Sequence record: PP925833.1
DNA length: 46,065 nt
Reading direction: 5' to 3' (one strand)
Source of the DNA: Escherichia phage Kati
Below, in pieces: positions 875 through 1,487 of the stretch. Under the pieces are notes generated by a model. That model ran no database searches. It was given only the letters and a program-made list of their open reading frames with translations, and had not been told where the DNA came from. The translations under genes and the position numbers were made by a program. How positions within the stretch are numbered: position 1 is the first letter of the stretch; every line of letters starts with the position of its first letter.

Positions 875-1081
875 ATGCACAAAACAGAACCCAAAATCGT
901 CGCGCCTGGCTACACAGATGAGGAAATTTATGAGTGGATGACAAAGAAGCTGGCAGCTATAAACCAGCTTCGTGAAGTGCTGTCTTATCGACAGGAAACA
1001 ATAGACTCCTTAAAAAAACTGGATCAGGAAATCACGGTTTTATCACAGGATGTTACTTTAGATATTGTGCAGACAAATTAG
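875..1081 (+). CDS. Hypothetical small protein (68 aa), predicted helical/coiled-coil
   Basis: ATG at 875 preceded by GAGGAG Shine-Dalgarno 7-8 nt upstream; ORF track frame 860..1081; overlaps 3' end of convergent ORF by 29 nt; no family recognised. Confidence 0.4.
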   Translation: MHKTEPKIVAPGYTDEEIYEWMTKKLAAINQLREVLSYRQETIDSLKKLDQEITVLSQDVTLDIVQTN

Positions 1082-1487
1082 GATCCCATTCATTTTCGTC
1101 AAAATCATCAAAGTGATGAATTTGTGATCTCCAGTCTCGATAATCTAAAAATTTCTGGGCGGTTACGCTTATTTTATCAAGTGTGAGTTCATCCTGAATT
1201 GAAAGAAGAAGTTCATCAAATTTCATCTCATTAATCTGTTTTGGCATCCAGTGATGCTTCATCAGAATAAGGTGAACCAGAGCCTTTTTCCCATTCAACT
1301 GATTATAGGGAGTGCCGAATTTCTTCCGGTGCTCATGTAAGACAAGGTCCAAAAGAGTAAGTAATGTTGCCCTTGATTCAACTTTGCTTATTTCGACTGA
1401 TGACACTACCCCACTGATTTCAATGCCCCGATACTTTCCAACATTTTCACAGTGGGATTTGTACAGCGTATAGATATTACCGGACAT
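1053..1487 (-). CDS. Hypothetical moron protein (144 aa), antisense to the early operon; C-terminal R-x4-H (RSQIHH) motif weakly reminiscent of HEPN
   Basis: ATG at 1487 with AAGGA SD; AT-rich relative to flanks; orientation opposite to neighbours; motif-level similarity only. Confidence 0.55.
   Translation of the reverse strand: MSGNIYTLYKSHCENVGKYRGIEISGVVSSVEISKVESRATLLTLLDLVLHEHRKKFGTPYNQLNGKKALVHLILMKHHWMPKQINEMKFDELLLSIQDELTLDKISVTAQKFLDYRDWRSQIHHFDDFDENEWDPNLSAQYLK

Follow-up and report, generated by a model that had tools for sequence, protein, structure and literature searches.

A conserved pair of convergent, overlapping genes beside the cI-type repressor gene of Escherichia phage Kati

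Directly downstream of the gene for a CI-like repressor (cI, nucleotides 1 to 627), the genome of Escherichia phage Kati (PP925833.1), analyzed here as one stretch of 46,065 nucleotides that we call the window, includes two open reading frames (ORFs) that face each other and overlap at their 3' ends. The question raised by this locus is what such a pair of genes does next to a repressor gene. An earlier note on the same DNA had proposed that the two ORFs are a defence or toxin-like module in a position like that of rex or sieB, an interpretation that as a whole was partly supported by the analysis described below. Sequence comparisons identify the locus as a representative of a mobile and conserved antisense cassette of two genes that belongs to the lambdoid prophages of Enterobacterales. 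What is new is that two catalogued, nameless families form an obligate-looking convergent and overlapping pair, that a rule of orientation is followed across three slots of the prophage genomes, that the pair is placed next to PL- and OL-like sites in this phage, and that one of the proteins has an apparently new fold.

The gene pair and its conservation

The 144-amino-acid protein and its gene are called here Big, and the 68-amino-acid protein and its gene Small. Small encompasses nucleotides 875 to 1081 of the plus strand and Big nucleotides 1053 to 1487 of the minus strand, and the two coding sequences share, tail to tail, the 29 nt between 1053 and 1081, a segment with no terminator-like structure on either strand. 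As had been claimed before, both genes have a good Shine-Dalgarno sequence: GAGGAG (862-867) is located 7 nt before the ATG of Small at 875, for which there is an alternative TTG start at 860, and AAGGA (1498-1494) is located 6 nt before the minus-strand ATG of Big (1487-1485). The AT-rich character of the locus was confirmed as well, the G+C content of the cassette (835-1502) being 39.2%, compared to 50.7% for the window, which places it among the lowest 10% of all segments of 668 nt. Comparison of two alleles from E. coli gave ratios of nonsynonymous to synonymous substitutions (dN/dS) of 0.22 (Big) and 0.13 (Small); both genes evolve under purifying selection. Since in addition homologues of both proteins can be detected at the protein level in other genera, with 14-39% identity to the proteins of the window, both ORFs are more than chance occurrences.

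A profile search of 1.8 billion representatives recovered 76 clusters of Big homologues, all of them stand-alone proteins of about 145-155 amino acids, and the clusters that carry a name are from Enterobacterales only. The profile of Small recovered 233 clusters, likewise enterobacterial and unannotated. A Small homologue faces Big, with the 3' ends of the two genes overlapping, wherever the context was readable, except at the loci L004 and L023 (in the latter the match is weak). The pair is found in this form at L019, L020 and L021/22, in Serratia (L026), Salmonella phage ST64B (L031), Klebsiella KPP5665-2 and prophage Sp4 of O157 Sakai (L033), and starting from Small it was also reached in Citrobacter (L034-36), Enterobacter (L037) and Franconibacter (L038). 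The pairing was therefore recovered in both directions, from Big to Small and from Small to Big, and the small ORF of Serratia was matched independently by a hidden Markov model (3e-8). A locus search with a narrow alignment had returned 3 loci only. The Small homologues have in common the motif (E/Q)P-x5-G-x-(S/T)-x-(E/S)-(E/Q)-(I/L)-x-(E/D/K)-W-(M/L), after which comes a long helix, and residues P6, W21 and L46 are invariant. The pairwise identities of Big and Small diverge together (r = 0.83, Mantel p ~2e-4, 11 lineages); across these 11 diverged lineages the identity of Big falls to about 21% and the convergent layout with overlapping 3' ends is found in all. The overlap is 29-146 nt long in nine measured lineages and would be about 317 nt in Sp4 if the ORF is read to its stop codon.

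One of the two genes is missing from several annotations. The record of SfIV (L001) is without the 68-amino-acid ORF and includes the probably spurious SfIV_34/35 over a small RNA region; that of ST64B includes sb50 but not the 144-amino-acid ORF opposite to it; and in Sakai Sp4 the small ORF opposite ECs_5703, formerly ECs1072, is unannotated. In E. coli O145:H28 RM13516 (L018) an IS3-family element (2299-3461) is inserted exactly between the small and the big genes, separating the pair and trimming the 3' end of Big, which there encodes 138 amino acids. The overlaps of ST64B (L031, about 3209-3279), Klebsiella (L032) and Serratia seem to include a palindrome centred on GGATCC, of the form TGGGATCCCA, which was deduced from the reading W-D-P of both proteins on opposite strands and not from the DNA of the loci; it may explain in part the invariant Trp of the EWDP motif of Big.

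The replaceable slot and its transcription signals

The window is the complete, circularly permuted genome of a temperate phage of the SfV/SfIV/SfII group that starts at the ATG of the cI-type repressor gene and ends with cro (45768-45968, minus strand) followed by the cI-cro intergenic region. The repressor, encoded on the plus strand and outside the cassette, is a 208-amino-acid protein with HTH_3 (PF01381, 1e-9) and Peptidase_S24 (PF00717, 9e-28) domains. A terminator-like hairpin and U-tract are located 3' of its gene on the same strand (646-685; -15.1 kcal/mol, z -3.45, then UUUUCUCUU), followed by a sigma-70-like plus-strand promoter, TTGCCA-17-TAGATT (681-709), which is a candidate early-left promoter analogous to PL. 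The spacer and the -10 sequence of this promoter are covered by an operator-like site, ACTAAGTTAAGTTAGA (692-707, plus strand), a candidate OL. With up to two mismatches, the pattern ACTAAG-N4-CTTAGT occurs three times in the 46 kb (0.96 expected), at this site and at 45980-45995 and 46029-46044, both within the cI-cro intergenic region, and the exact 9-mer AACTAAGTT is found at positions 691 and 45979 of the window only. The promoter/operator and the two copies between cI and cro, taken together as candidate sites, define the immunity region of the phage. In mEp460 and in an O145 prophage the promoter/operator segment accompanies this cI allele, and so does the 646-685 hairpin. The heteroimmune group of SfIV, SfV and PhiR29_1 has its own terminator, TTGACA promoter and GTAC operator motifs at the equivalent place, and the leader common to both immunity groups begins at 723, about 14 nt past the -10 sequence. 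In the distant relative L019 the order is cI, terminator, TTGACA-16-CATAAT and its small gene. We read the 681-709 sequence as a candidate cI-repressed early-left promoter, in which case Small is the first ORF of a PL-like transcript and not an extension of the cI operon.

Megablast analysis against phage genomes showed that Shigella phage SfIV and two phages of E. coli also have the pair; in other relatives only the flanks matched. The left flank is a conserved leader (723-834, plus strand; blastn with SfIV, SfV and PhiR29_1) common to phages with different cargo. By blastn, PhiR29_1 (L003) matches the window at 723-834 and 1503-2400, and SfV (L002) at 723-786 and 1557-2400. The place of the pair is taken in SfV by orf33 (98 amino acids, plus strand), for which no functional study was evident from the titles and abstracts of the literature; in mEp460 by a 122-amino-acid helix-turn-helix protein (plus strand; HTH_17, with a weak "mad1" match); and in PhiR29_1 by an unrelated minus-strand gene whose product has a coiled coil and CxxC...CxxC. 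SfII, ST64B and PhiR40_1 have little or nothing in the slot after cI. Because the flanks are common to SfV, PhiR29_1 and mEp460, which have other or no cargo, and the G+C content is 39% vs 51%, the pair at about 835-1502 is by these comparisons accessory cargo, a moron. Among 5426 complete genomes of E. coli, 431 (about 8%) carry the pair, nearly always intact. The family has a strict association with phages, all known cases being temperate ones, and on plasmids it was found in 13 of 72,556 records, mostly phage-sized. The PhiR29_1 gene (about 3133-3680, minus strand) encodes about 175 amino acids with an N-terminal coiled coil and a zinc-ribbon-like C-terminus, and the deposited 242-amino-acid coding sequence appears over-extended into the conserved flank.

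Two minus-strand structures could end the transcript of Big in the window. A terminator-like hairpin within the Small ORF (946-971; -15.6 kcal/mol, z -3.26) is the proximal one, and an intrinsic terminator made of a hairpin and UUUUUUG (797-816) is the distal stop for leftward transcripts of the slot; the latter is present in phages with minus-strand cargo (SfIV, PhiR29_1) and absent from SfV. Since the overlap has no terminator and the minus-strand hairpins are at 971-946 and 816-797, each transcript must enter the gene of its partner. The 5' region of Big includes, on the minus strand, two direct repeats GTTGTTGGGGA(A)TAACCAG (1503-1520 and 1536-1554; region 1503-1554) and, within the repeat pair, a weak -10-like TAATCT (1524-1519). 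The repeats are also found in PhiR29_1 ahead of its different minus-strand gene and are absent from SfV and mEp460, which have plus-strand cargo; they could be a shared 5' untranslated region or regulatory element, or a recombination junction for the exchange of cassettes.

The pair occupies three different slots in lambdoid genomes. One follows cI and the PL-like promoter (the window, L019 and L020), another lies between cro/cII and the replication genes (L021 and Sp4), and the third extends from Q to the holin gene (Serratia, ST64B, KPP5665-2 and L034-38). In every case, in all three slots, Small has the orientation of the surrounding phage operon and Big is opposed to it. An extended -10 sequence (TGNTANNNT) is located 27-39 nt upstream of the Big ATG in 7 of 12 lineages (shuffles gave a mean of 0.33 and a maximum of 4), and Sp4 has a perfect TATAAT at the equivalent distance. 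A terminator for Big within the partner ORF is also found in ST64B (L031, 3324-3344) and Citrobacter (L034, 2644-2622), and in both the terminator of the Small-sense transcript is just past the 5' end of Big. Overlapping 3' ends, together with terminators that are located inside the partner gene or past it, make each transcript antisense to the other. In ST64B a promoter-like site (L031, 3602-3575) is located directly after Q and ahead of Small; the corresponding late promoter of lambda, PR', is constitutive. In the Citrobacter and Enterobacter loci (L034-L037, 924-2360) the pair adjoins other antisense cargo, namely DUF6731 with a 159-amino-acid protein and DUF6650, which suggests that the Q-holin slot is a hotspot for multiple cassettes.

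Protein families, fold and possible functions

Neither protein had been recognised in the earlier note. Both belong in fact to catalogued but uncharacterised families, which they match over their full length. Big belongs to NCBIfam NF033230 ("ECs1072 family phage-associated protein"), with a score of 157.8 bits for a cut-off of 70 and residues 4-144 aligned to profile positions 2-142 of 142, and to PHROG 5286 (phrog_5286, 1.5e-90). Small belongs to PHROG 1744 (phrog_1744, 6e-35) and is an acidic protein (pI 4.8) of predicted coiled-coil type. The product of Sakai ECs_5703 matched the Big family profile built here with 2.5e-12. These are name-only entries in which the partner relationship, the antisense layout and the function are all unrecorded. 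Beyond them, Pfam, PADLOC and NCBIfam searches with both proteins and 48 Big homologues gave nothing convincing, and no functional work on either family was found in the literature consulted, where "ECs1072" was met in an expression table only and "sb50" only as strain names or in typing. The two proteins are soluble and mildly acidic, their maximum 19-residue hydropathy being 0.84, and no membrane or hydrophobic segment, secretion signal, enzyme signature or (Pfam among the searches) nucleic-acid-binding signature was found in either.

The AlphaFold model of Big, made with an alignment of 48 sequences, is confident and all-alpha (mean predicted local distance difference test [pLDDT] 94.1, predicted template modelling score [pTM] 0.88), in agreement with the helical nature attributed to it before. 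Foldseek gave no match below E 0.5, either for this model against BFVD or for an earlier one (pLDDT 78) against PDB, and a sequence-profile search of PDB had zero matches even at E = 10. The modelled structure is thus apparently a new all-alpha fold. Residues L50, R54, L64, G66, A69 and H72 are conserved in at least 90% of the sequences, and W134 is invariant.

The suggestion that Big is a HEPN-type RNase toxin that uses a C-terminal R-x4-H motif is not supported by this comparison. The motif, RSQIHH, does exist in the copy of the window (residues 120-125), the protein is all-helical, and the Foldseek matches of low rank include a small number of HEPN chains (E of at least 3, template modelling scores of 0.2-0.3). 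However, RSQIHH is limited to close alleles: at 52-72% identity its R is replaced by A or E and its H by L, S or Y, and in the alignment of 48 sequences its columns contain gaps and show no conservation. Big has no further R-x4-6-H that is conserved, position 67 before the conserved H72 being K, R, I, L or S. Membership of HEPN fails on two counts, since the motif is not conserved and structure comparison did not recover the four-helix HEPN fold, and we consider this possibility extremely unlikely.

The known systems with which the pair can be compared differ from it in some respects. The rexAB genes of lambda and sieB of P22 and lambda are immunity-region accessory genes located by cI or PL that are expressed in lysogens and exclude other phages; RexB and SieB are membrane proteins, RexA has 279 amino acids, and P22 sieB has a self-protection partner (Esc) and an antisense RNA (sas). 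Big and Small are also accessory genes of the immunity region, adjacent to cI and to the candidate PL, and the likeness that had been drawn to rex and sieB stands as far as position is concerned. It does not extend to homology with RexAB or SieB, for which there was no PADLOC or Pfam match, or to a membrane component: the lack of a membrane segment in both proteins sets them apart from RexB and SieB, the two genes face each other instead of running in one direction, and between them and cI there are a terminator and a promoter that bears an operator. In convergent type I toxin-antitoxin systems, such as txpA/RatA and bsrG/SR4 of Bacillus subtilis, the 3' parts of the transcripts also overlap, so that one RNA regulates its partner. 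In those systems a non-coding RNA acts as the antitoxin of a small membrane peptide, whereas both Big and Small are conserved soluble proteins under purifying selection. A parallel in organization is Tha/Ith of the S. aureus phage 80alpha (also phiNM2), in which, as demonstrated experimentally, a defence protein and its small inhibitor are tied to the life cycle by an antisense "noncontiguous operon" (PMC11087260). It too is an immunity-region pair next to cI. The larger protein and its small partner, which had earlier been misannotated, are read from opposite strands in overlapping transcription units, and expression of the two is mutually exclusive and coupled to lysogeny or lytic growth. 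Big and Small are likewise opposite-strand partners with overlapping transcription units within a phage operon, in each of the three slots. On the other hand, there is no similarity of sequence or fold, Tha being a HEPN RNase and Big not, and the arrangement is reversed: the defence gene of 80alpha has the direction of the cI operon and its small inhibitor the opposite one, while here Small follows the host operon, apparently a lytic one, and Big is antisense. BstA (PMC8585504) is a single protein of about 300 amino acids with a DNA self-immunity element (aba) within its gene and no similarity to Big or Small, neither of which had a PADLOC match.

By analogy with Tha/Ith we tentatively favour, as one possible explanation, that Big is a lysogen-expressed protein of the exclusion or abortive-infection type that is antisense-coupled to Small, an antagonist made in the lytic cycle. 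Big would have a promoter of its own and be transcribed in opposition to the phage operon in which the cassette resides, and Small would be transcribed together with that operon, which here would be the first stretch of the cI-repressed PL-like transcript. In a lysogen, cI would close the 681-709 promoter, so that Small would be off while Big would be made from the repressed prophage, having an accessory function, most likely the exclusion or abortive infection of other phages. Upon induction or infection, transcription of the PL type (from PL, PR or PR' depending on the slot) would collide with and mask the Big transcript and at the same time yield Small, which would antagonise Big and spare the phage from self-harm. 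The analysis shows that the genes are real, paired and co-diverging, that they obey the rule of orientation, that the cassette is mobile and that motifs of promoters, operators and terminators are present, while the timing of expression, the antagonism between Small and Big and any activity against phages are inferred. The broader proposal that the pair is an unrecognised, widespread defence of Enterobacterales prophages, with a 145-amino-acid effector or sensor of new fold silenced by Small and by head-on transcription, is more doubtful. If it were true, about 8% of complete E. coli genomes would carry a compact module of defence and self-immunity, found also in Shigella SfIV, Salmonella ST64B, O157 Sp4 and Klebsiella prophages and with one gene often unannotated; the "antisense noncontiguous operon" answer to prophage autoimmunity would reach the lambdoid phages, as a Gram-negative counterpart made of unrelated proteins; the defence repertoire would gain a new protein fold; and the recurrence of an orphan gene at three classic sites for morons would be accounted for. 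Even if the pair is regulatory or toxin-antitoxin-like, the orientation rule and the 3' overlap can be tested by the standard genetics of E. coli and lambda-type phages, and the conserved overlap makes it a clean natural example of control by convergent transcription.

Several results weigh against a lysogen-expressed Big with a lytic antagonist. Consensus and relaxed scans of the minus strand found no promoter for Big in the window beyond the weak TAATCT, nor was the TG-extended -10 sequence of other lineages found there. No detectable Small was found beside Big in L004, from which it follows that Big is not obligatorily toxic without Small. Neither protein resembles any defence, toxin or anti-defence protein in the PADLOC and Pfam searches or in the sequence and fold searches of PDB. 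The alternative cargo offers no independent support for a defence hotspot, since SfV orf33 and the PhiR29_1 gene had no matches and the mEp460 protein had the weak "mad1" match; these cargo genes are not known defence genes either. In the Q-holin slot Small is behind an apparent late promoter and so may be made in lysogens, which fits a toxin-antitoxin system better. Expression in a lysogen does have some support from a family member: in O157 Sakai without induction, ECs1072 mRNA was detected and decreased more than 4-fold (log2 -2.13) at entry into stationary phase (PMC2241611), but this array result concerns a distant relative within the family and is possibly not strand-specific.

A toxin-antitoxin-like addiction or abortive module, in which Big would be a toxin of new fold and Small its labile acidic antitoxin, both expressed in the lysogen and with their ratio tuned by the overlap, would account for the tight pairing and co-divergence, for a partner that is short and acidic, and for the Q-holin slot, where Small is behind a promoter-like site (L031, 3602-3575) that would be constitutive if it is like lambda PR'. 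We regard it as unlikely, since the convergent arrangement, present in every lineage examined, is atypical of type II systems, whose hallmark, a co-directional bicistron with an autoregulating DNA-binding antitoxin, is not seen in the pair. Moreover, a DNA-binding domain was not found in Small, the family is almost absent from plasmids, Big is without Small in L004, and the Small of the window is behind an operator-bearing promoter, so that it is probably off in lysogens. The position of the cassette, always promoter-proximal in a major phage operon (PL-like, cro/cII or Q) with Big opposing it, could instead mean that Big, through head-on transcription, the protein or both, dampens or delays the PL, PR or PR' operon and that Small relieves this effect, with no role against other phages. 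The strict association with temperate phages agrees with such a developmental regulator. The pair is, however, dispensable, as viable close relatives are without it (SfV, SfII, mEp460 and PhiR29/40), neither protein has a nucleic-acid-binding signature, and low G+C content and mosaic distribution are typical of cargo and not of core regulators; all this makes the idea distinctly unlikely.

The growth-phase regulation of ECs1072 mRNA in an uninduced lysogen and the presence of the cassette in about 8% of complete E. coli genomes would also be expected from lysogenic-conversion cargo that aids the host outside the phage context, in stress or growth-phase physiology, with Small as a regulator. 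This is improbable in our opinion: no secretion signal, membrane segment or enzyme signature was found, and unless the cassette is tied in some way to the life cycle of the phage, its orientation with respect to the lytic operons is difficult to account for. Finally, Big alone could be real and Small a chance ORF in the 3' untranslated or terminator region of Big. Small varies little within E. coli, a frameshift affects the C-terminus in several of its database copies (E. albertii L005; P0054, P0064 and P0067), and it is unannotated in SfIV. Yet the same N-terminal motif persists where Big is only 21-38% identical and the DNA cannot be aligned, and this, the 233 clusters in the protein database, the dN/dS of 0.13 and the strong Shine-Dalgarno sequence leave a chance origin hardly credible.

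Other features of the genome

Between the cassette and yfdP there is a GC-rich stretch in which some GenBank records place doubtful ORFs. It includes a match to the prophage small RNA family STnc100 (RF02076) at window positions 1598-1821 of the plus strand (E 4e-8), whose 43.4 bits fall slightly short of the gathering score, 47. STnc100 has recently been linked to the PasD small RNAs (bioRxiv 10.64898/2026.05.13.724894). A weak DicF-like match is located at 1759-1813. Past the integrase gene the window carries further cargo of low G+C content (26-38%) at 5800-8900 and 9200-10800, namely genes for an omptin-family outer-membrane protease (6404-7357, plus strand), an AraC-family regulator (7607-8356, minus strand) and a methyltransferase (9219-9887, plus strand).

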